DNA of 64,000 nt from Candidatus Omnitrophota bacterium (GTDB lineage: Bacteria > Omnitrophota > Gorgyraeia > Zapsychrales > Fredricksoniimonadaceae): positions 9,291-73,290 of the forward strand of contig JAGWKL010000008.1 of NCBI GenBank assembly GCA_028865345.1, given 5' to 3'. A model generated the notes under the pieces. It saw nothing but the letters and a program-made list of their open reading frames with translations. It was not told where the DNA came from and ran no database searches. Shown piece after piece: positions 5,242 to 59,340 of the stretch. Within the stretch, counting starts at the first letter, position 1. The number at the start of each line of letters is the position of its first letter. The position numbers and the translations under genes are program-made.

Positions 5242-5441
5242 GACCGCTCCTGTTATATTGACTTTGAAATAATAATGCCGTCATTTTGAACTAAAGGACC
5301 TTATAAGTCAAGTTCATTCATGGAAAAAGAGACAGGAGCTTTTTGGCGGGCCCCTTTTTCATGTATTTTTCTTGTTTTATCCGGGTGATTCGGATAGAAT
5401 CTACATCTATTCCTTAAAATTCTACCTTGAGGTCAAAAAGC

Positions 5442-6071
5442 ATGTTTCAAAATAAAAATATCTTTGAGATCATATCAGCCGGCGGGGCCACCATCTATCT
5501 TCTTATTTTTTGCTCCATTATTTCCATTGCGGTCATCATTGAGCGTATTGTTTATTATAAGCGCCGTTCGCAATATTCCCGGGTCGATATTTTCAACCAG
5601 GTGCGCAAAGAAGTGACCGGCAACCGCGTCCTTAATGCCATAGGGCTTTGCAAAAACATCGATACGCCGGTGGCAAAGGTGGCCCTGGCAGGACTTAACC
5701 TGCACGGGCATGACGAAAAGCTCATTGCCAATGCCATGGAACGCGAGATCACCGTTGAGACGATCAAATTGGAGCGTTTTACAGGCATCATAGGCAGCAT
5801 CGGCGGCACTGCGGTGTATATAGGGCTCTTGGGCACCGTCCTGGGGATCATGCGCGCTTTCAATAATATAGGGAAAGCGGGAAGCGGCGGCATGAATGTG
5901 GTGACGGTCGGCATCGCGGAAGCCCTGATATGCACGGCTGCGGGCTTGCTTGTGGCCATACCGGCGGTGCTTTGTTATAATTGGTTTACCCGTAAAATCG
6001 ATAATTTTGTGGTTGATATGGAATTGGCCGCGTCCGAGCTGGTTGATCTATTGTGTTCCAAAAAGAAATGA
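5442..6071 (+). CDS. MotA/TolQ/ExbB-family proton channel.
   Basis: Three-TM topology with the conserved C-terminal helix pair (GLLGTVLGIMRAF...ALICTAAGLLVAIPAV). ATG at 5442 is preferred over the TTG at 5427. Confidence 0.85.
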   Translation: MFQNKNIFEIISAGGATIYLLIFCSIISIAVIIERIVYYKRRSQYSRVDIFNQVRKEVTGNRVLNAIGLCKNIDTPVAKVALAGLNLHGHDEKLIANAMEREITVETIKLERFTGIIGSIGGTAVYIGLLGTVLGIMRAFNNIGKAGSGGMNVVTVGIAEALICTAAGLLVAIPAVLCYNWFTRKIDNFVVDMELAASELVDLLCSKKK

Positions 6072-6490
6072 GAAGACGGCAAAGAAATTCCCAACTGATT
6101 GCGGACATCAACATCACCCCTTTCACCGATGTTATCCTGGTCTTATTGATCATTTTTATGATCACAACCCCTTTTATTTACCGTTCCAGCATCAAGATCG
6201 CCTTGCCGAAGGTCTCCGGCAACCAGCGGCCTTTGATGAGGACAAAGGACATCGATGTCAGCATCACTTCCGCCGGGGAGGTTTATTTAAACAATGAAAG
6301 ATACAACCTGAAGCTGGACCTGGATCTTTTCAAATTCAAATTGAGGCAGCTCATGAAAAGGTATAATAACCCTGCCCTTATTATTGATGGGGACCGTAAT
6401 GTGAAATATGATTATGTGGTGCAGGTCATTGATGCCGCTTCCAAGGTGGGGATCCAGCATCTCGTTTTAGCGACTCAGATCAAAAGATAG
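6068..6490 (+). CDS. ExbD/TolR biopolymer transport protein.
   Basis: N-terminal motif ADINITPFTDVILVLLIIFMIT plus a periplasmic domain. ATGA overlap with exbB. Confidence 0.85.
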   Translation: MRRRQRNSQLIADINITPFTDVILVLLIIFMITTPFIYRSSIKIALPKVSGNQRPLMRTKDIDVSITSAGEVYLNNERYNLKLDLDLFKFKLRQLMKRYNNPALIIDGDRNVKYDYVVQVIDAASKVGIQHLVLATQIKR

Positions 6491-6516
6491 GTTTATTTAA
6501 CGAAAGAGGATAGGAC

Positions 6517-7917
6517 ATGCCAGTTTTAGGAACACAGGAACGCCCTTTAAGGGTGGCTATTGTAGGCAGCGGTCCCAGCGGTTTTTATACGGCTGATGCC
6601 ATTTTAAGGCAGAACATAATAACAAAGGTGGATTTATTCGATAAACTGCCAGTACCCTTTGGTTTGGTGCGTCACGGGGTCGCTCCGGACCATCAAAAGA
6701 TCAAAAATGTCATCAAAATTTTTGAAAAAATCGCGGTTAACCCTCAATTTTCCTATTTTGGTAATGTTACGGTGGGCAAAAACATCGGTGTTTTTGAGTT
6801 GAACAAGTATTATGACGCGGTAGTTTTTGCTTACGGTGCGGAAACCGACCGGCATTTAGGGGTGCGCGGGGAAGATTTGGCCGGCAGTTGTACGGCCACG
6901 GAATTTGTGGGCTGGTATAACGGGCACCCGGACTTCCAGGACCGCCATTTCGACCTTTCCGGCGAAGTTGCCGTTATTGTGGGCAACGGTAACGTGGCCA
7001 TGGATGTGGCCCGGATCCTTTGTAAAACCCCGGAAGAGTTGAAGAATACGGACATCACTCAAAATGCCCTGGATGTTTTGGCGGAAAGCAAGATCAAGGA
7101 AGTGCATCTTTTTGGCCGCAGGGGGCCTGTCCAGGCTTCTTTTACATCACCGGAGCTTAGGGAAATGGGAGAATTGAGTTCTTGCTATCCTGTTGTTGAT
7201 CCAAAGGATTTACAGCTCAATGAATCCAGCCTTAAAGAGCTTCAAGACACTGCCAATGCCTGGCATAAAAAGAACTACGAGATCATGAAAAGCTATTTGT
7301 CCATCGATCCGCAGGGCCGCAAGCGTAAATTTGTCATGCATTTTTTCCGCAGTCCTGTTGAAATTATGGGAAAAGGGCGGGTGCAGAAGGCCAGGTTTGA
7401 GATCAACGCCCTGACAGGCGATCCCAATAAGCAAAAGGTCAGGGGAACAGGTAAATTTGAAGAGATCGACTGCGGCATATTCTTTCGCAGTGTCGGATAT
7501 TCAGGCACCCGCATCCAGGGTCTCCCGTTTTCCACTGAAGCAGGTATTGTTCCCAACCAGTTAGGCCGGGTCGTCGATTCCGAGCAGATTTTTACCGGTT
7601 GGTACGTGGCCGGCTGGATCAAAAGAGGCGCTGTAGGCATTATCGGGTCCAATAAACCTGATGCCGAAGAGACGGTCAGGTCCCTTATGGAGGACATAGG
7701 GCATTTAAACCCCTGTGAGATCCCCAGCAGCGAAGAATTGCTCAAACTTTTAAGATCCAGGGAAGCCATGGTCGTCACCTTTGACGATTGGAAGAAGATC
7801 GATGCCGCAGAGATCCAGCGGGGGGTCCAGTTGGGCAAACCCAGGGAAAAATTCGCCCGCATCACGGGGATGCTATCCGCTATTTTCAACAGAATACATC
7901 CGGAAAAAAAGTATTAG
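6517..7917 (+). CDS. fprA: FprA/adrenodoxin-reductase-like NADPH:ferredoxin oxidoreductase.
   Basis: N-terminal FAD GxGxxG (VAIVGSGPSGFY) and second NADP GxGxxA/G (VAVIVGNGNVAMDVARIL). Colinear similarity to mycobacterial FprA across the whole length. Confidence 0.8.
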   Translation: MPVLGTQERPLRVAIVGSGPSGFYTADAILRQNIITKVDLFDKLPVPFGLVRHGVAPDHQKIKNVIKIFEKIAVNPQFSYFGNVTVGKNIGVFELNKYYDAVVFAYGAETDRHLGVRGEDLAGSCTATEFVGWYNGHPDFQDRHFDLSGEVAVIVGNGNVAMDVARILCKTPEELKNTDITQNALDVLAESKIKEVHLFGRRGPVQASFTSPELREMGELSSCYPVVDPKDLQLNESSLKELQDTANAWHKKNYEIMKSYLSIDPQGRKRKFVMHFFRSPVEIMGKGRVQKARFEINALTGDPNKQKVRGTGKFEEIDCGIFFRSVGYSGTRIQGLPFSTEAGIVPNQLGRVVDSEQIFTGWYVAGWIKRGAVGIIGSNKPDAEETVRSLMEDIGHLNPCEIPSSEELLKLLRSREAMVVTFDDWKKIDAAEIQRGVQLGKPREKFARITGMLSAIFNRIHPEKKY

Positions 7918-7970
7918 ACTTTCCTTATGAAATAGGGTATATTAGGAATCACTAATCTACCCCAAGATAA

Positions 7971-7996
7971 GGGGAAAAATTCCCCATGGGGGTTTT
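7971..7996. promoter_or_regulatory. Overlapping G4/C4 palindromes in the leader upstream of giant-protein gene A. The span 7971-7996 contains GGGGAAAAATTCCCC and CCCCATGGGG.
   Basis: Perfect inverted repeat GGGGAA/TTCCCC with a 3-nt spacer, overlapping the self-complementary CCCCATGGGG. It lies directly 5' of a strong SD. Confidence 0.35.
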
Positions 7997-8011
7997 AAGG
8001 AGGTAATTCCT

Positions 8012-8104
8012 ATGATTGGACCGCATAGCCAAGAGTCGAATCAAAAGGCCCAACAGGAAGAGGAAGCAACATTTGCCTGGGATGAGGCTAATGTCTTGAT
8101 CTGA
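8012..8104 (+). CDS. Candidate small ORF or leader peptide, 30 aa (MIGPHSQESNQKAQQEEEATFAWDEANVLI).
   Basis: Perfect SD AAGGAGG (7997-8003) 8 nt upstream of the ATG. An intrinsic terminator starts 29 nt after its stop. Too short for the ORF track. Confidence 0.3.
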   Translation: MIGPHSQESNQKAQQEEEATFAWDEANVLI

Positions 8105-8132
8105 AAATTCCATAAGTTTGGGTAATTTTAAA

Positions 8133-8164
8133 CCCTTCGCCGAAGTTTTGGTGAAGGGTTTTTT
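8133..8164 (+). terminator. Rho-independent terminator or attenuator between the small ORF and giant-protein gene A.
   Basis: 9-bp stem CCCTTCGCC/GGTGAAGGG with one G-U wobble, an 8-nt loop, then TTTTTT. Confidence 0.55.
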
Positions 8165-8318
8165 AATTTATTTGTAAGTCCATATTTTATATATAGTTGT
8201 AATGTATTGTGGTTTTGCCCCTTGTATCTTGTCATGAGACGTGTTATCTTTTCTTTATTCAGGTAAGCGTTTTCTTTGGCCGGATCAGCCGGCACTCACA
8301 GTTGTTCCTCCGGGCGCT

Positions 8319-11300
8319 ATGTTCAAAAGACCGTTAAGTCTGCTCATTATTTTTGCTTTTGTTTTAACATCCATAGGCCCTCTTTGCCCTGTTCCATGCT
8401 CTGCAGCAGTGGATGGATTAGGCCTGCCGGCGCCTGGGACCATGGTCAATTTAAGCCCGGCCTACCAACCGGTCATCATCAGAGGTTTGACCGTCCATAA
8501 AGACAACCCTTTCTTGTTCGACTTTATCGTGGATACCGGCCAGGATCACATGTCCGGAGAGCCTTTGAAAAAAGAAGGCGAAAAGCTCATCAAGTATTTT
8601 TTAGCCTCCCTGAGCATCCCTGACAAAGACGTATGGGTCAACCTCTCACCTTATGAGAAAGACAAGATCATTCCTGAAGTTTTAGGCCGGACGGGTATGG
8701 GCCGCGACCTTCTGGAGGAGGACTATATCCTAAAGCAGGTCACAGCTTCTCTCATTTATCCGGAGAGGCAATTAGGCAAGACCTTCTGGGACACGGTGTA
8801 TGCCAAGGCCCGGGCTATGTACGGCACAACGCAGATACCGGTCAATACCTTTAACAAGGTCTGGATCATGGCAGACAGGGCGCAGGTTTATGAGCATGGG
8901 CAAACCGCCTTTGTGGTGGATAGTCATTTAAAGGTGATGCTGCAAGAGGATTACCTGGCCCTGAAAAATCACGAAGGAGCGGTCGCGCATCCCCAAGGGG
9001 CGAAGCAATCACATTCCCTTGTCTCTCAAATTGTCCGTCAAATCATCCTTCCCCAACTTGAAAAAGAAGTCAATACCGGCAAGAACTTCGCTAAGCTTAG
9101 ACAAATATTCAATTCCATCATCCTGGCCAACTGGTACAAGAGGAATTTAAAGCAGGCGCTTCTCAACCAGGTATATGCCGATAAAGGGAAGGTCAAAGGC
9201 ATAAATTTAAACGATCCCAACGTCAAGGAACGGATTTATGAGCAATACCTGAAAGCCTACAAAAAGGGGGTCTTCAATTATATTCAGGAGGACATTAACG
9301 CCTCCGATGGTGCAAAGATACCAAGAAAATATTTTTCAGGAGGTATCAATGAGGGCATGGCTGCTGATCCTGCCATAACCCATGATGCGGCGGCTTTGGC
9401 CGCATCCTTGCCCCGCAGGACCATGGTTGATTTTATGACTGAAGCTTCCCCCTATACGGATAGGGCCATGAGTCATCGGAATGCTGTAAAGACCAAAACG
9501 GATTACAGGACAAAAAAGGATTTGGAGTACCCGTCGATCGAAGATCAGATAAACATAATAGCGGGGGTCAGAAGGTCTGTTATGGAACATCCTCCTGTTA
9601 AAGGGCAAAATTCAAAATACAGAATCCGCATCCTGAGCGCCCAATTCCTTGAGAAAAAAAGTGAGACGGGCTATTTGGAAAGTTTATACAGGTCCCCCGC
9701 ACTGGAGCAATTAAGGGAAAAAGGATACGCATTGAAAAAGGACGACAACGGGCTTTATCTGGAACGTAAGATTATTTCCCGGGAAGATCTATTGCGTATT
9801 TTCGCAGGGGTCTTGGGGAAATTACGGAGGGATTATTGGAAGGATGTCGTGCCCTTATATGGGCAGGGCAAGCTGTCTGAGAAAGATGTCCGCAGGGTTT
9901 CTTATCCGTCGGCCGGCATGGGATTGATTAAAGATGCCGGTGCTGTTTTTGATAACGGCAGGCTCTTGACATCCGGCCGGGATATTCAACAAGTTATTGG
10001 TAAAAATGCTTTTGTGCTTTGGCCGGCGGACGGTCAGAAAAATCTTTCATTTGCACTGGTCTTTACCGGCCGGGGCGGGGCGGTTCTTGACGCGGCGAGG
10101 GCATCTAAACCCGATGCCGCCATGACCGGCAGGGGCAAAAAGACCCATCCTCTCTATTTGAAAGTGCAGTCTTTATTTTCACAACCGCTTCAATTTGCCG
10201 ATGCGGTGGCCCGCGTCCCCGGGAAAAATGGAGGGGATGAAATCCGTATTAAACGCGAAAGTCCGGGCAGTTATCTTGTTCAACGGACCCTGCTTCCCGG
10301 CCCCGTACGCATAGAAAACAGCCAGGATAAGAATTTTTCTTTTAACTTTGCAATACGGGGTGGCCAATTCGTTATAGCTACCAACGCCATGGCCCCGGAT
10401 AGCGTGAAGTTTGTTTTTGAGCAAAAGAAACTGGAATGGGGGCCGGATCAATCCGTCAAAGAGGAAGTAACGACTAAAAAAAGAGAAATAAGAAATCTCA
10501 GCCTTAATCACTTTAACAGGCTGGGCGGCCTTTCCAATGGAGAGAGGATAGAAATTAATTTCGGCTACTACACACAGAAAATAGTTTTGACCTACAGGGA
10601 TGGGAGTCTGTTTTTGGAAAAGCCCTTTGAGTTGTCATCGAGGAATTCGATTTCTTTTGAGAGAAAAGACGGGACATATATATTGCGGGCTTCGGCGCAT
10701 TCGCATTTTGATCAGGCGAACATCAAAATTTATGCTGATACGGAATTTTCTTACAGGCCGATGCTTCCGGGCGGGCAAGCCGACCGGGCGATGACAAGCG
10801 CTCAAAAAAGGGTCGAAAGCAGTTTGCAGGACTTGATCGGGGAGGGTTTAGGGGTCATACACCCGGAAATCCTGGGCATTCTATCCATACCGGCCGTTTT
10901 AAAGGGGGGGAAAATAAGGGATGTGGAAAGCATTTTTGTTCATTTGAGGCAATTTGTTCCGATAACCCAGGAAGGTAAAATGTGGAACTCCACATTAAAT
11001 GACGAAGAGGCTGCTTTTTTAACTTGGGCGGTGATGATCAGAGACCAAACTAAAATTGAGAAGCTCTTAAGAAATTTTTATGGCAAATTCTCTTTAGGAT
11101 TGAATAGAAGAATATACCGTAGCGAAGCCGTTTTTTTGACCGTGGCTGCGGCGATCAGGGGCGGGGATGACGCTGCCGGTGAGGTGGAAAATGATTTTGA
11201 ACGGTTTGTGACTCCGGTGGAGAAAGGCGGGTATGGGCTGAAAGGACATTTTGCAAGTCTATTGACGATCGCGGCGCAATTGATGGAAAGAAAAGATATT

Positions 11301-11789
11301 CAGCGGCTCATGGATGTTTATGATTATTGGCATGTGAAAAAACAACAGGGACCGGAAGTGGCGGCGGTGTTGTCCATGGCGACGGTGAGTAAGGGGGCGG
11401 ATATTGAAAATGGGGAACATGAGATTAAAGGCGACTTTAAATTTAAGAAGAAATTAAGTTTGGACGGCAGGGAAGTGGAGCTTAATGAAAAAGCCCGTTC
11501 CTTTCTTGCCCTTGCCTGCGCCTTGGCCGATACCTCCGACGCGGCGATGACGGGGGCCCCTTTCGTTCCTGCCATGGCCGCCCAAAATCCCGGCGGTATC
11601 GATTTGAGCACCTCCGGCGGCATGCAGTGGAAAATCCGCAAGGATGGAGCCGGCGTCGAAATGAACATCGACCCTGCCATGGCGGCACGGATACGGGCGC
11701 GCGGCATCGACGGGCTTTCGCCGGTTATTTTCAAGATCACGCCGGTTACCGACGTCTGGGTGCTGGCCGGCTTGAAAGCCCCCGCCTGA
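8319..11789 (+). CDS. Giant secreted protein A (about 1156 aa mature). Unassigned family; paralog of the protein at 55660-59340.
   Basis: Signal peptide MFKRPLSLLIIFAFVLTSIGPLCPVPCSAA. About 330 aa after it align with paralog B (PGxMVNLSP, KYFLASLxIPD, VNLSPYEK, MGRDLLExDYILKQ, VNTFNKVWI, SHLKVMLxEDYLxLK, KKGVFNYIxED, IPRKYFxGG). The ORF stays open back to a GTG at 8241, but the ATG at 8319 starts the signal peptide. Confidence 0.7.
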   Translation: MFKRPLSLLIIFAFVLTSIGPLCPVPCSAAVDGLGLPAPGTMVNLSPAYQPVIIRGLTVHKDNPFLFDFIVDTGQDHMSGEPLKKEGEKLIKYFLASLSIPDKDVWVNLSPYEKDKIIPEVLGRTGMGRDLLEEDYILKQVTASLIYPERQLGKTFWDTVYAKARAMYGTTQIPVNTFNKVWIMADRAQVYEHGQTAFVVDSHLKVMLQEDYLALKNHEGAVAHPQGAKQSHSLVSQIVRQIILPQLEKEVNTGKNFAKLRQIFNSIILANWYKRNLKQALLNQVYADKGKVKGINLNDPNVKERIYEQYLKAYKKGVFNYIQEDINASDGAKIPRKYFSGGINEGMAADPAITHDAAALAASLPRRTMVDFMTEASPYTDRAMSHRNAVKTKTDYRTKKDLEYPSIEDQINIIAGVRRSVMEHPPVKGQNSKYRIRILSAQFLEKKSETGYLESLYRSPALEQLREKGYALKKDDNGLYLERKIISREDLLRIFAGVLGKLRRDYWKDVVPLYGQGKLSEKDVRRVSYPSAGMGLIKDAGAVFDNGRLLTSGRDIQQVIGKNAFVLWPADGQKNLSFALVFTGRGGAVLDAARASKPDAAMTGRGKKTHPLYLKVQSLFSQPLQFADAVARVPGKNGGDEIRIKRESPGSYLVQRTLLPGPVRIENSQDKNFSFNFAIRGGQFVIATNAMAPDSVKFVFEQKKLEWGPDQSVKEEVTTKKREIRNLSLNHFNRLGGLSNGERIEINFGYYTQKIVLTYRDGSLFLEKPFELSSRNSISFERKDGTYILRASAHSHFDQANIKIYADTEFSYRPMLPGGQADRAMTSAQKRVESSLQDLIGEGLGVIHPEILGILSIPAVLKGGKIRDVESIFVHLRQFVPITQEGKMWNSTLNDEEAAFLTWAVMIRDQTKIEKLLRNFYGKFSLGLNRRIYRSEAVFLTVAAAIRGGDDAAGEVENDFERFVTPVEKGGYGLKGHFASLLTIAAQLMERKDIQRLMDVYDYWHVKKQQGPEVAAVLSMATVSKGADIENGEHEIKGDFKFKKKLSLDGREVELNEKARSFLALACALADTSDAAMTGAPFVPAMAAQNPGGIDLSTSGGMQWKIRKDGAGVEMNIDPAMAARIRARGIDGLSPVIFKITPVTDVWVLAGLKAPA

Positions 11790-11908
11790 TAAAATCCCCC
11801 TCTTTTATTCAAATCATTTTTTTGCAAAGAAAATTGACATTGAAAAAAACAGAAGTAAGATAAAAGTATAAATATTTCACTAACAATTTAAGGGCTAAAG
11901 GATGATTT

Positions 11909-55546: not shown

Positions 55547-55659
55547 AGTAGTCCCGCTGCGGCTTGACAAAGACTATTTTATATGGCACTCTTTACTTAG
55601 GATGTGGATGAAGGCGGGAGAGAGGTATGTCCCCATATACCCTGAATATTAAAAAATCT

Positions 55660-58600
55660 ATGTTTTTAAAGTTACGCAGGATCGTTTCTATTGTTATTAT
55701 ATCGGCTTTTATGACCACCTCGGTCAGGACGCCGGCCTGGGCGCAGTCCTCTGTAGGCCTGCTGCCCAATCTGCCGCCTCCGGGGGCGATGGTAAATTTA
55801 AGCCCCGATTTTACGCCTGCCCATCTGATGGGCATTACCATCCATCCCGATAACCCCTTAAAGTTTGATTTCTTGATCGATAATGGCGACCAGGAAATGG
55901 ACAGCGTCCAAAAGCGGGAGGAATATCAAAAACTGGTAAAGTATTTTTTGGCCTCCCTGACCATCCCCGATGGCCACCAGTGGGTGAACCTTTCGCCTTA
56001 TGAAAAGGGACGCATCATCCAGAATGATTTCGGCAAAACACAGATGGGCCGGGATTTGCTGGAGCAGGATTACATCCTCAAGCAGATCACCTCAAGTTTG
56101 ATCTATCCTGAAAGCCGTTTGGGCAAGGAATTCTGGGACAAGGTCTATCAACGCGCCTGGAATGAATACCACACGACCGACATCCCGGTCAATACCTTTA
56201 ACAAAGTATGGATCGTGCCTGACCAGGCCGTAGTTTACGAAAGCGGCGACAGCGCCTATATCCTCCAGAGCCATTTAAAGGTGATGCTGGAAGAAGACTA
56301 CCTCTCCCTGAAAGAACATACGGCCATTTCCTCTTCCGATGTCAATGCCGTTGCCAATGACACCCATGCCATCGGTTCCCAGGTGATCCGCGAGATCGTC
56401 CTTCCTGAACTTCAAAAAGAGGTCAATGAAGACAAGAATTTTGAAAGCCTGCGCCAGATGTACAGCGGGATGGTCCTGGCGACCTGGTATAAAATGGCAT
56501 TGAAGAAATCTCTCTTGGGGATGATTTACGCGGACAAGGCCAAGGTCAAGGGCGTTGACCAGGACCCCAGGACCAACCAATTAATATACAACCAGTATTT
56601 GCGCGCGTTTAAAAAGGGCGTGTTCAACTATATTAAGGAAGATGTGGACAAATTCACAAATGAGGAGATCCCCAGGAAATATTTTGCGGGCGGGTTTCAG
56701 CCCCTGGAGGGGGCTGATGAAATAAGAGATATAGGCCAGGCGCAACAGGCGGTTCAGGAGAGTAGAAGCAACCCGCTGCCCCGGGAGTTTGTCGTCAAAG
56801 CCAATCAGGGAGAGAATGTGGCGAATGTGGCGCCAACCATCAACACTCTTCTTGGAGGCCGGCCCATTTCTGTTGACTGGCAGAAGCCGGAGAATTTCAA
56901 TGTTGCCGTTGTTGATTTAAGCCAGGCAAACCAGAACCCCGGTGGAGTTTCCGGCAACGCCACGACTGTCGCGCAGAGTGAAGCGCAAAAATTTGTAAAC
57001 TTTATGCAGGAGAGGGAACTCCCGGTGCCGGCCAATCTGCCTGCAGACCAACTGGCCAGGGCCAAGCAGGGGGAAAAGAATTGGCAAATCAGCAATGCCA
57101 TGCGCCAGCAGCTGCAGCAATGGTACAAGGGCAATGATCAGTATGATCCCATGGTGGATTCCATTTTTAAGCATTTGGATTATGAATACGATCAGGCAAC
57201 GGACAATTTTAAGGTTGTCTATTCCAATCCGGCGATGACGTCCAACGGAGAAATAACTGACGCGACTTTTTCCAGAATTTCCCGCCGGTTGAACCAAAAC
57301 CCTGCTATCAGCCGGTTATTGGAGAATCCCATTACCCGGGATTTCTATGATAAGACACTTAATTCCAATTTGACCAATCCCGGGAAATTGCAGCGTATCC
57401 GTCAACGGTTGGATGATTTAAGGCCGGGTTTGGGGCAAACGGTGGATTCCATCGTTGCAGAGGTCCAGGCGGATCAAAGTGCGAACAGGGCGATGACCAC
57501 GGTCCTGGTCATTGATGATGATCCCGTGATGCTGGATATCAATAAAGCGGTATTGTCCCGTGCCGGTTATAATGTTTTAACCGCCCAGACCGAGCAGGAA
57601 GCTGAAACATCTTGGCAGGAGAATAAAGATAATATAGGCCTTATCCTTAGCGACACCCATAACACAGGGCAAAAGGATTGGCCTGATTTGGTGAAAGGAT
57701 TCGTGGCGCAGAAAAATGTCCCTGTTCTTGCCACCAGCGGGTTGGCAACCCAGCAAGCCTGGCAGGGGATCACCGATCATTTTCTTCCCAAGCCGTATTC
57801 CATTCATGTTTTAACCTCTGCAGTTCAGGGAATTTTGTCCGCCAATCAGCCTGCAGTTGATCAGGCCATGGCGTCAAATACCGGGAGTTGGTTGAAGGAG
57901 AAGATCTTGCCGCTGGTAGGAGCGGTTGCGGTAGGGGGCGTCGTTGCGGGGGCAATAAGCATGCCTTCCTATTTACATCAGCGGGAATTAAACAAGATCT
58001 CTTTGGTCCAACCCGGACAGATTGCGTCTATAAACAACCAGGCGGCAAGGGTCGTGGTCAATACCGGCGGAGTGGGTGTCGTCATTACCCAGCCGGGCAG
58101 GCCGATCAGGATCATCAGTGTCAATCCCAACAATGTTGCCGACGTTGCTCAGCAATTGTTGCAGGAATATCCGGCCGGCATCAATAATGCCGTTATCCAT
58201 GTTTTTGCCGATGGTGACGGTGAACGGGGAGCGGGCAATGCATTGTCGATGGCTTTGTTGGGTAAAGAGAATATCTCTGATCATCACATTTATCTTGAAC
58301 ATGCGGCGCCGTTTAATTTGGTGGCTCATCCCCTGGGCAGCGGAAGCGATTTTGTAAGGATTGAAAATGGGGACGGGATGGAGCATCATTATGTGGAGAC
58401 AAAGGGTGTTTTAATTCAGTTGCCCAAGAACAATCCCAACCCGGCCATGGCCTCCAACAGCAAAATAAATCGGATCAGAGAAAGGCTTGTGACGGCAGCC
58501 ACGCTGGCCGGCATCTCAGCGGCCGCGCTGTTTCTTGCTCCCGGGGCCGCAAAGAATGTCCAGATAGCCATCAAGGAACATAGAATTCCTTTGAAAAGCG

Positions 58601-59340
58601 GGATCCAAACCGGAGAGGGTGCGTATACGGTCAATGAAAATGAGGCGGCGGTCGCTTTTTCAGTTGAAGGTCAGCCCAATTTTGCTTATGCAGGCGTTGT
58701 AGGGACAAACGATTCTCAAGAAATACAGAACCTTACTAAAATAAAAACGGATTTACGGCAAAAATACCCCCACACCCAAATTTACATGGATTATTGGACC
58801 TATGGGCGGATGACTGAAGACGGAAGGTATATGCAGGATCACGCGGGCAATATCATAAGCAGCATACCGGCGGCCCCCGGCTTTGAGGTCCGGGTCCATC
58901 ATCTTCCCTTTGAACCGACGGAGCCCAGCGCTCCTCTTCCCTATGGATTTTACGTCAAGGGGCCGATCATTCATGTGGATACCCAAACCTTGGGCACCAC
59001 CGGCGGCTATTGGTATGCCAATAACACCGGGAACGGTTTGACGCATGCCCCGGCAGGTTATACGGATAATGCCATGGCGATCCGGCAACAAACGAACAGC
59101 GAGTCAGCGTTAATCGCCGAATCCCTGACTAAAAAAGGTGGTATCGACTTAAACGCCGCCAACCTGAATTTATTCATCAAACGCGACGGCAGCGGCGTGC
59201 CGCTGCCCTGGGCCCAGCAGGACATCTCCCTGTTTAAGAACATCCAGGGTTTTGTTCCCCAAATCGTCGAGATCCGGCCTGCCGTCGACATTTCCGTCAT
59301 CAACGAACTGCAACAGAAGCTGCAATCTTTCCAGAATTAA
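55660..59340 (+). CDS. Giant secreted/membrane protein B (about 1226 aa). Paralog of protein A, with an internal CheY-like receiver domain and two hydrophobic segments.
   Basis: Signal peptide MFLKLRRIVSIVIISAFMTTSVRTPAWA. About 330-aa N-domain colinear with protein A. Receiver-like segment at about 57495-57840 (TVLVIDDDP...GLILSD...LATSG...LPKPYS). Hydrophobic helices at about 57904-57966 and about 58500-58560. C-terminal GGIDL...KRDGSGV module. The ORF is open back to an ATG at 55627. Confidence 0.7.
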   Translation: MFLKLRRIVSIVIISAFMTTSVRTPAWAQSSVGLLPNLPPPGAMVNLSPDFTPAHLMGITIHPDNPLKFDFLIDNGDQEMDSVQKREEYQKLVKYFLASLTIPDGHQWVNLSPYEKGRIIQNDFGKTQMGRDLLEQDYILKQITSSLIYPESRLGKEFWDKVYQRAWNEYHTTDIPVNTFNKVWIVPDQAVVYESGDSAYILQSHLKVMLEEDYLSLKEHTAISSSDVNAVANDTHAIGSQVIREIVLPELQKEVNEDKNFESLRQMYSGMVLATWYKMALKKSLLGMIYADKAKVKGVDQDPRTNQLIYNQYLRAFKKGVFNYIKEDVDKFTNEEIPRKYFAGGFQPLEGADEIRDIGQAQQAVQESRSNPLPREFVVKANQGENVANVAPTINTLLGGRPISVDWQKPENFNVAVVDLSQANQNPGGVSGNATTVAQSEAQKFVNFMQERELPVPANLPADQLARAKQGEKNWQISNAMRQQLQQWYKGNDQYDPMVDSIFKHLDYEYDQATDNFKVVYSNPAMTSNGEITDATFSRISRRLNQNPAISRLLENPITRDFYDKTLNSNLTNPGKLQRIRQRLDDLRPGLGQTVDSIVAEVQADQSANRAMTTVLVIDDDPVMLDINKAVLSRAGYNVLTAQTEQEAETSWQENKDNIGLILSDTHNTGQKDWPDLVKGFVAQKNVPVLATSGLATQQAWQGITDHFLPKPYSIHVLTSAVQGILSANQPAVDQAMASNTGSWLKEKILPLVGAVAVGGVVAGAISMPSYLHQRELNKISLVQPGQIASINNQAARVVVNTGGVGVVITQPGRPIRIISVNPNNVADVAQQLLQEYPAGINNAVIHVFADGDGERGAGNALSMALLGKENISDHHIYLEHAAPFNLVAHPLGSGSDFVRIENGDGMEHHYVETKGVLIQLPKNNPNPAMASNSKINRIRERLVTAATLAGISAAALFLAPGAAKNVQIAIKEHRIPLKSGIQTGEGAYTVNENEAAVAFSVEGQPNFAYAGVVGTNDSQEIQNLTKIKTDLRQKYPHTQIYMDYWTYGRMTEDGRYMQDHAGNIISSIPAAPGFEVRVHHLPFEPTEPSAPLPYGFYVKGPIIHVDTQTLGTTGGYWYANNTGNGLTHAPAGYTDNAMAIRQQTNSESALIAESLTKKGGIDLNAANLNLFIKRDGSGVPLPWAQQDISLFKNIQGFVPQIVEIRPAVDISVINELQQKLQSFQN

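Follow-up and report, generated by a model that had tools for sequence, protein, structure and literature searches.

Organisation of the interval between fprA and gene A

The present analysis deals with the interval between fprA and a large downstream gene, here called gene A, in the genome of a Candidatus Omnitrophota bacterium (GenBank assembly GCA_028865345.1). The whole stretch of DNA that was analysed, 64,000 nucleotides of contig JAGWKL010000008.1 (positions 9,291 to 73,290 of the forward strand), is referred to as the window, and positions are given in its own numbering. The interval contains an open reading frame (ORF) of 30 codons, which is preceded by a promoter, a structured 5' untranslated region (5'UTR) and a Shine-Dalgarno (SD) sequence and followed by an intrinsic terminator (Table 1). 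We propose that these elements constitute an autonomous microprotein gene, which is separate from gene A, and we assign a probability of about 0.85 to this reading.

An earlier note on this DNA had regarded the interval as more than a plain promoter region and had compared it with a leader controlling read-through into gene A. The former view is supported, as the conservation of the small ORF, of the hairpin and of the terminator marks them as genuine elements under selection, and all sequence elements listed in the note were found where it had placed them. The distance between the fprA stop codon and the ATG of gene A is 401 nt and not 320 bp. Moreover, the 403-nt interval folds better than shuffled versions of itself (z = -3.2). 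It is the conservation of the unit in 42 other loci, and not the single sequence, that argues against a chance origin of its elements.

Table 1 Features in and around the interval between fprA and gene A (positions in the window)
Feature	Position	Strand	Description
exbB/tolQ-like and exbD/tolR-like genes, then fprA	5427-7917	same strand	gaps of at most 26 nt
fprA	6517..7917	+	adrenodoxin-reductase-type; upstream neighbour of the small gene
Promoter of the small gene	7904..7943	+	A-tract 7904-7910; -35 box TAGACT 7915-7920; 17-nt spacer; -10 box TATATT 7938-7943
5'UTR RNA element	7954..7993	+	outer helix P1 around inner helix P2
P1, outer helix	7960-7964 with 7987-7991		CCC(C)A pairs with UGGG(G)
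P2, inner helix	7971-7976 with 7980-7985		GGGGAA/UUCCCC, capped by AAA loop
Asymmetric internal loop	7965-7970 opposite A7986		AGAUAA; GAUA invariant
SD sequence	7997-8003	+	AAGGAGG; 8 nt, then ATG 8012
30-codon ORF	8012..8104	+	encodes acidic microprotein MIGPHSQESNQKAQQEEEATFAWDEANVLI
3'UTR motif	8117..8126	+	TTTGGGTAAT (consensus TTTGGGTATT); just 5' of the terminator
Intrinsic terminator	8130..8164	+	stem 8130-8161; T6 run 8159-8164
Upstream region of gene A	8165..8318	+	outside the small-gene unit; part of the variable block 8133-11816
Gene A	8319..11789		large gene 3' of the small-gene unit; family of large secreted proteins
Peptidoglycan (PG)-binding-domain gene, queH			3' of gene A

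Conservation of the small-gene unit and of its microprotein

Anchoring on FprA, with one genome per species, yielded four close loci (L001-L004) in Omnitrophota-type metagenome-assembled genomes, which share 71-81% identity in this protein; the next FprA matches belong to other phyla and do not exceed 56% identity. By tblastn, the 30-amino-acid ORF was detected in L002, L003 and L004 at 80-90% identity, and no small ORF was found in the 76 more distant fprA loci from other phyla (L005-L080). Another 39 loci (L081-L119) came from a search of metagenomes that used the alignment of the peptides. The small-gene unit is present once per locus in 42 other Omnitrophota genome or metagenome loci, or in 43 loci when the window is counted. 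The earlier note had named the absence of the ORF and the hairpins from related genomes as the outcome that would speak against its reading; both were found to be conserved.

The ORF comprises exactly 30 codons in the 40 complete loci, which represent 37 distinct DNA versions, and its start and stop codons are conserved. Among these versions, 11, 5 and 28 columns vary at codon positions 1, 2 and 3, respectively. The Nei-Gojobori ratio of nonsynonymous to synonymous divergence (dN/dS) is 0.044 at a mean dS of 0.76, which reveals very strong purifying selection along the whole length, and the remaining two frames of the plus strand contain stop codons in every locus. The AAGGAGG-N8-ATG arrangement in front of an acidic ORF, which had been pointed out in the earlier note, is present exactly as described, and AAGGAGG is kept in 35 of the 36 aligned sequences (the exception, L117, has AAGGGGG). 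The conserved AAGGAGG-N7-9-ATG arrangement suggests that the peptide is produced, and the selection on its codons marks the microprotein as the presumable functional product of the unit.

The peptide carries a conserved C-terminal motif, TF(A/T)WDE(A/T)(N/S)(V/I)L(I/L). Its mean identity to the window sequence is 90%, as compared with 74% for FprA, 72-80% for ExbD/TolR, 62-72% for the PG-binding protein and 32-63% for gene A. For instance, the peptide of L081 is identical in all 30 residues although FprA is only 57% identical in this locus. At the DNA level, the unit is 84-87% identical and the flanking genes are 68-76% identical. No other coding element of the neighbourhood is conserved as well as the small peptide.

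When 1.84 billion representative proteins were scanned exhaustively with HMMER, only four clusters were found, all of 29-39 amino acids, whose members are annotated as 'hypothetical protein' in the source databases. The peptide has no match in Pfam or NCBIfam and none in the PDB at E-values up to 10, a full-text literature search for the peptide string and for small proteins of the Omnitrophota yielded nothing relevant, and a second copy of it was not found in the window. In the AlphaFold2 model, residues 4-28 form one helix (pLDDT 73), and AQQEEEATFAWDEANVLI is a tryptic peptide of the predicted microprotein. The peptide family has no homologue of known function and the 5'UTR element no Rfam match; the microprotein gene is new, uncharacterised and restricted to one clade of uncultivated Omnitrophota.

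Two other ORFs were considered and rejected. The antisense ORF of 53 codons (7952..8113) is interrupted in most loci, and its identity falls to 43-45% where the sense peptide holds 80-83%. A 39-amino-acid form of the microprotein, which is present in some databases, would start at ATG 7986. However, in the window this ATG lies in another frame and opens an ORF of 6 codons; its frame hinges on an indel of 1 nt, and L102 has ACG at this position. Thus, the 39-amino-acid versions are an artefact of gene calling, and ATG 7986 is conserved because it is part of the 3' arm of P1.

A small ORF with a conserved C-terminal segment could also encode the precursor of a modified or exported peptide, i.e. 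a ribosomally synthesised and post-translationally modified peptide or a signalling peptide. However, there is no signal peptide, no core rich in Cys, Ser or Thr and no conserved neighbouring gene for a modifying enzyme, a protease or an exporter. Moreover, the conservation spans the whole length of the peptide rather than a core alone, and a precursor function is extremely improbable.

Promoter and untranslated regions

The small gene has a conserved promoter, which does not appear in the earlier note. It lies about 70 nt 5' of the ATG and consists of an A-tract and boxes of the type TAGACA-17-TATATT. The boxes align and are conserved in all 36 distinct upstream sequences, and the promoter scanner reported matches in the window, in L107 (TAGACA-17-TATATT, 10/12) and in L002 (TTGGCA-18-TATTAT). 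Transcription probably starts near position 7950, and high expression would be in line with the A-tract, with boxes close to the consensus and with the perfect SD sequence. In the window, the fprA stop codon TAG (7915-7917) falls inside the -35 box of the small gene. Therefore, no terminator can separate the two genes there.

The sequence GGGGAAAAATTCCCCATGGGGG, which the earlier note had described for positions 7971-7992, was found there. The note had also suggested that its G4 and C4 blocks pair in two mutually exclusive ways. The covariation analysis and RNAalifold instead revealed nested helices that coexist; thus, the blocks do not form a switch. The pairing of CCCC with GGGG around AT cannot form because its loop would be 2 nt long, and the downstream GGGG (7988-7991) pairs with the upstream CCCC (7960-7963) instead. 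The compensatory changes expected of real helices, for which the earlier note had recommended a comparison of related genomes, are indeed present. In P2, all four tested pairs show double changes from G-C to A-U, never one-sided ones, and 98.6% of the positions are paired across 36 sequences. P1 carries an A-U to G-C exchange in L102, and its outermost pair occurs as AU, UA or CG. Six pairs of the element carry double changes. The covariation score was reached by none of 500 shuffles, a count that does not equal a probability since the sequences are related. In a control with slid partners, pairing fell from 90% to 43-62%. RNAalifold independently yielded the identical nested structure of P1 and P2.

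A covariance model of the element (R1) scores 64.3 bits at 7954-7993, and the next best score in the window is 11.2 bits. The model gives exactly one match per small-ORF locus and none elsewhere, including the fprA loci outside the Omnitrophota, and there is no second copy of the motif in the window or elsewhere in any locus. A scan of positions 7500-8700 against Rfam 15 with E-values up to 10 returned nothing credible and nothing that covers 7954-7993; the best scores were far below the thresholds (L10_leader, 23.7 versus 44 bits; STnc630, 24.2 versus 55 bits). The 5' stem-loop most likely sets the stability or the translation rate of the mRNA, or it serves as the operator for a binding protein. 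A hairpin that would sequester the SD sequence just before the ATG (AGGAG/UUCCU) was also considered; it shows no covariation and is broken in divergent loci.

In most loci of the main clade, the 3'UTR contains the short motif listed in Table 1 beside the terminator. This motif, which has the form TTTGGGTA(T/A)T, is found at equivalent positions in front of the terminator in L004, L089, L091, L092, L103-L105, L107-L109 and L112. Insertions build up between the stop codon and the 3'UTR motif, and in L002 and L113 the TTTGGG sequence is the arm of a local hairpin instead (6233-6255 in L002). A long-range pairing of the 5' ACCCAAG with the 3' UUUGGGU was rejected: all seven positions are complementary in 13 loci, but no compensatory change occurs where the 5' site varies.

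The untranslated regions bear on the possibility that the transcript of about 215 nt is a dual-function or mainly regulatory small RNA (sRNA), which acts by base-pairing or protein titration through its 5' stem-loop and the 3' TTTGGGTATT, the peptide being secondary. The 5'UTR is as conserved as the ORF, with covarying helices and an invariant GAUA loop, the 3' motif beside the terminator is conserved, and the size and architecture of the transcript resemble those of peptide-encoding sRNAs. However, the SD sequence, the start, the stop and the length of the ORF are conserved in the 40 complete loci. The ORF is constrained as a protein and not as an RNA because its synonymous sites diverge freely whereas the amino acids do not. 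Moreover, the window holds neither a second copy of the motif nor a target-like complement, and the pairing between the 5' and 3' ends lacks covariation. A mainly regulatory RNA is thus regarded as unlikely, and we retain the microprotein as the main product.

Terminator and independence from gene A

The terminator with a 9-bp stem and a U6 tail, as given in the earlier note, is present. According to the scanner, its stem has 14 pairs if A-T and G-T pairs are counted, with a computed free energy (dG) of -20.3 kcal/mol, and the G+C-rich core corresponds to the 9-bp stem. All loci examined have a hairpin with a T-run 3' of the ORF, with dG values between -12.6 and -31 kcal/mol. The stems are unrelated in sequence between the loci, and they start 15-79 nt after the stop codon. 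This variability of distance and sequence indicates an ordinary transcript end and not an attenuator. In the window, the terminator is the first one after exbB/exbD/fprA, and it would also end the transcript of these genes because the fprA stop codon lies in the -35 box of the small gene. Its predicted role is the ordinary one of terminating transcription and thereby insulating whatever gene follows.

The genes that follow the unit were tallied over the 43 loci. A relative of gene A is present in 17 loci (the window and 16 others), the PG-binding gene follows directly in 12 loci, a convergent sulfite-reductase gene is found in 4 loci and other genes in 3 loci, and the contig ends in the remaining 7 loci. 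The terminator of L002 is of the bidirectional type, with the convergent gene on its other side. As a side observation, a gene for a CysI/Sir-type sulfite reductase converges on the small gene in L002 (6323-8185, minus strand) and also in L003, L102, L113 and L117; in the divergent clade, this gene uses the bidirectional terminator in common with the small gene.

Comparison of the window with L085 illustrates the independence of the two units. The sequences align over 6401-8132 and again from 11817, and the block 8133-11816, which contains gene A and its upstream region, is absent from L085. Likewise, homology between the window and L081, L082, L083 and L085 ends at about 8105-8132 and restarts at about 11816-11833. 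The relatives of gene A are scattered when the loci are ranked by FprA similarity. The slot that separates the terminator from the PG-binding gene varies in content when the window is compared with L081-L085, L091 and L098: it may be empty, it may contain one or two members of the gene A family, or it may be occupied by other genes. Two gene-A-family genes occupy it in L004 and other genes in L109, a pattern that is unrelated to FprA similarity.

In sister loci, the relatives of gene A have their own promoter 3' of the terminator, of the form TTGACA/TTGGCA-17/18-(C/T)ATACT, for instance in L107 (4181-4216) and L096 (4231-4270) and also in L003, L089, L090, L092, L099-L101 and L111. As the ATG lies just about 6-9 nt past the -10 box, these genes may be expressed from leaderless mRNAs. 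The PG-binding gene also has a conserved promoter (TTGACA-16-TAAGAT; 11834-11861 in the window). Gene A is therefore best regarded as a separately expressed gene in a variable slot, which is not regulated by the small-gene unit.

These data bear directly on the suggestion that translation of the small ORF decides between termination at 8130-8164 and read-through into gene A. In its favour, the small ORF, the terminator and gene A succeed one another on one strand both in the window and in 16 further loci, and no above-threshold promoter was found at 8165-8318 in the window. However, the unit and its terminator are intact in front of the PG-binding gene, the convergent sulfite-reductase gene and other genes, gene A is missing from relatives with an identical or near-identical peptide, and separate promoters 3' of the terminator serve the gene-A relatives and the PG-binding gene. 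Nor did the peptide alignment reveal clustered regulatory codons: the dN/dS ratio of 0.04 extends along the whole length, there is no run of a single codon, E and D interchange within QQE(E/D)E and the only Trp stands alone. Mutually exclusive hairpins were not found either, since the sole conserved helices are the nested P1 and P2 5' of the ORF, and the unit has its own promoter rather than one in common with an adjoining regulated operon. An attenuator has to keep a fixed geometry with respect to the leader ORF. With a stop-to-terminator distance of 15-79 nt and unrelated terminator sequences, no conserved antiterminator can exist. The comparative data have thus largely refuted the attenuator proposed in the earlier note, which we consider highly improbable.

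Several side observations concern gene A itself, which has no match in Pfam or NCBIfam. In the window, its ATG is preceded by CCTCC. An ORF of 11 codons begins at ATG 8202, shortly 3' of a stretch rich in TATATA, and possibly represents a remnant of the leaderless start that sister loci show. A 16-mer, G(A/G)CACTCACAGTTGTT, lies directly 5' of gene-A-family starts in the window (8291-8306), L087 (227-242) and L100 (1611-1626), and repeat-like GTCATTCCCGCG...GCGGGAATCC elements occur beside it in L004, L087 and L088. The 16-mer may belong to a small repeat or mobile element. Gene A has a paralogue in the window, paralogue B (55627..59340), with 53% identity over the N-terminal 350 amino acids. 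The common parts are confined to the N-terminal 350 and the C-terminal 60 residues, and the middle part of paralogue B contains a response-regulator receiver domain (residues 626-733) that gene A does not have. As the earlier note had stated, the leader of paralogue B differs; the box upstream of 55627 reads TTGACA-17-CACTCT, and there is no copy of the 5'UTR motif (R1).

Possible function of the microprotein

According to the proposed model, a sigma-70-type promoter with an upstream A-tract would drive the synthesis of a short mRNA of about 215 nt (roughly 7950-8165), whose 5'UTR would fold into a stem-loop of two helices and an internal loop with the conserved GAUA. The perfect SD sequence would direct the translation of the acidic microprotein of 30 residues, and the strong intrinsic terminator would end both the transcript of the small gene and that of the upstream exbB/exbD/fprA operon. 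The peptide is probably a cytoplasmic helix, whose invariant acidic and hydrophobic C-terminus, TFAWDEANVLI, may dock on a conserved protein partner. An important binding partner is usual for microproteins under such strong constraint.

The most accessible candidate for the partner may be the adrenodoxin-reductase-type enzyme FprA, which was matched to FprA of M. tuberculosis (PDB 1LQT, E = 2e-109). This choice is a guess, since it derives from co-transcription and synteny, which are weak arguments, and it is given a low probability. A more specific version holds that the peptide is a dedicated partner of FprA, encoded by the last cistron of exbB/exbD/fprA, and that its acidic helix binds to the basic ferredoxin-binding face of the enzyme and modulates electron transfer. 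It refines the autonomous microprotein gene rather than excluding it. FprA is encoded 5' of the small gene on the same strand in 36 of the 43 loci, including those of the divergent clade, in which one or two unrelated genes are inserted between them, and no terminator can separate the two genes in the window. Moreover, the convergent neighbour in the divergent clade encodes a sulfite reductase of the ferredoxin or NADPH type, and the peptide is acidic like ferredoxins. Its DEANVLI segment loosely resembles DEENDML, the recognition helix of adrenodoxin. However, the unit has its own promoter, the FprA homologues of other phyla (L005-L080) lack such an ORF, and the peptide is far more conserved than FprA, which would be unusual for the partner of a faster-evolving enzyme. 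A dedicated FprA partner is thus a tentative and rather doubtful refinement. The order of exbB/exbD and fprA is kept across the clade, and fprA is an unusual operon partner for such a proton-channel pair. Besides FprA and ExbD, no other conserved partner was found among the neighbours, which are heterogeneous across the loci (SprT-like, ion-channel-like, cupin, ABC ATPase, transposase-like, NuoN-like and QueH proteins).

In a broader and equally speculative proposal, the peptide is a previously unrecognised regulator under near-absolute constraint that docks via its invariant C-terminus TFAWDEANVLI on a core enzyme or machine, for instance as a ferredoxin mimic on FprA, and the 5'UTR, with its two helices around the invariant AGAUAA/A loop, belongs to a cis-regulatory RNA class not described before and controls peptide synthesis as the operator for a protein or a small ligand.

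Some observations weigh against the autonomous microprotein gene or against its link with FprA. Both ends of the transcript as well as the existence of the peptide are inferred from the sequence, and the peptide has no homologue of known function in the Pfam, PDB and representative-protein searches. Within 8165-8318 of the window, there is neither a scanner-level promoter on the plus strand nor an SD sequence for gene A. As gene A lacks a recognisable promoter and SD sequence there, some read-through of the terminator could contribute to its expression in the window. With respect to FprA, the unit occurs without an adjacent FprA gene in L115, L116 and L119, and the synteny is confined to one shallow clade, so that it may be inherited rather than functional. 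The comparison of the loci demonstrates the conservation of the unit, the coding signature of its ORF, the covariation of its RNA and its independence from gene A.

The locus also holds a lesson for genome annotation, because a short ORF and a terminator in front of a large gene form an independent gene here and the terminator is the end of the upstream operon. The microprotein is annotated as 'hypothetical' or missed, yet it is more conserved than the surrounding enzymes. The Omnitrophota are a phylum with almost no experimental biology, and the small peptide is a cheap target for pull-down experiments or structure prediction. The covarying 5'UTR element adds a candidate to the unassigned cis-regulatory RNA motifs, and the position of gene A in a variable slot, with its own and probably leaderless expression signals in sister genomes, bears on the gain and loss of large secreted proteins.

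Comparison with known systems

Attenuators of the trpL, hisL, pheL and thrL type resemble the small-gene unit in their order of elements: a short ORF preceded by a strong ribosome-binding site, an intrinsic terminator and a downstream gene on the same strand. Unlike these attenuators, the unit has no run of regulatory codons, no conserved alternative hairpin and no constant distance between stop codon and terminator. Furthermore, selection acts strongly on its peptide, the unit is equipped with a promoter of its own, and the gene that follows differs between loci or is convergent. The unit thus fails each testable defining feature of an attenuator, and the likeness is superficial. The terminator matches canonical Rho-independent terminators, with a G+C-rich stem, a short loop and a U-tract, and its function is conserved while its sequence is not; there is nothing unusual about it and it has no antiterminator partner.

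The 5'UTR element can be compared with the stabilising stem-loops at the 5' ends of the E. coli ompA 5'UTR and the B. subtilis aprE leader. In each case, about 10 nt separate the inferred 5' end from a stable hairpin, which precedes a strong SD sequence in a presumably highly expressed mRNA. However, the internal loop of AGAUAA opposite A is invariant in the element described here. This points to specific recognition rather than to a generic block at the 5' end.

In its architecture, the unit is closest to stand-alone small-protein genes and peptide-encoding sRNAs such as SR1/SR1P of B. subtilis, RNAIII/delta-haemolysin (hld) of S. aureus and SgrS/SgrT of E. coli. Like these, it would give rise to a monocistronic transcript of about 200 nt that has a promoter and a terminator of its own, is structured in its untranslated regions and carries an ORF in the range of 26-43 codons. 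There is no sequence relationship with these systems. Moreover, unlike SR1P, Hld and SgrT, the peptide is acidic, soluble and limited to one clade of the Omnitrophota. SR1P acts by binding to a metabolic enzyme, which parallels the mechanism proposed here for the microprotein.

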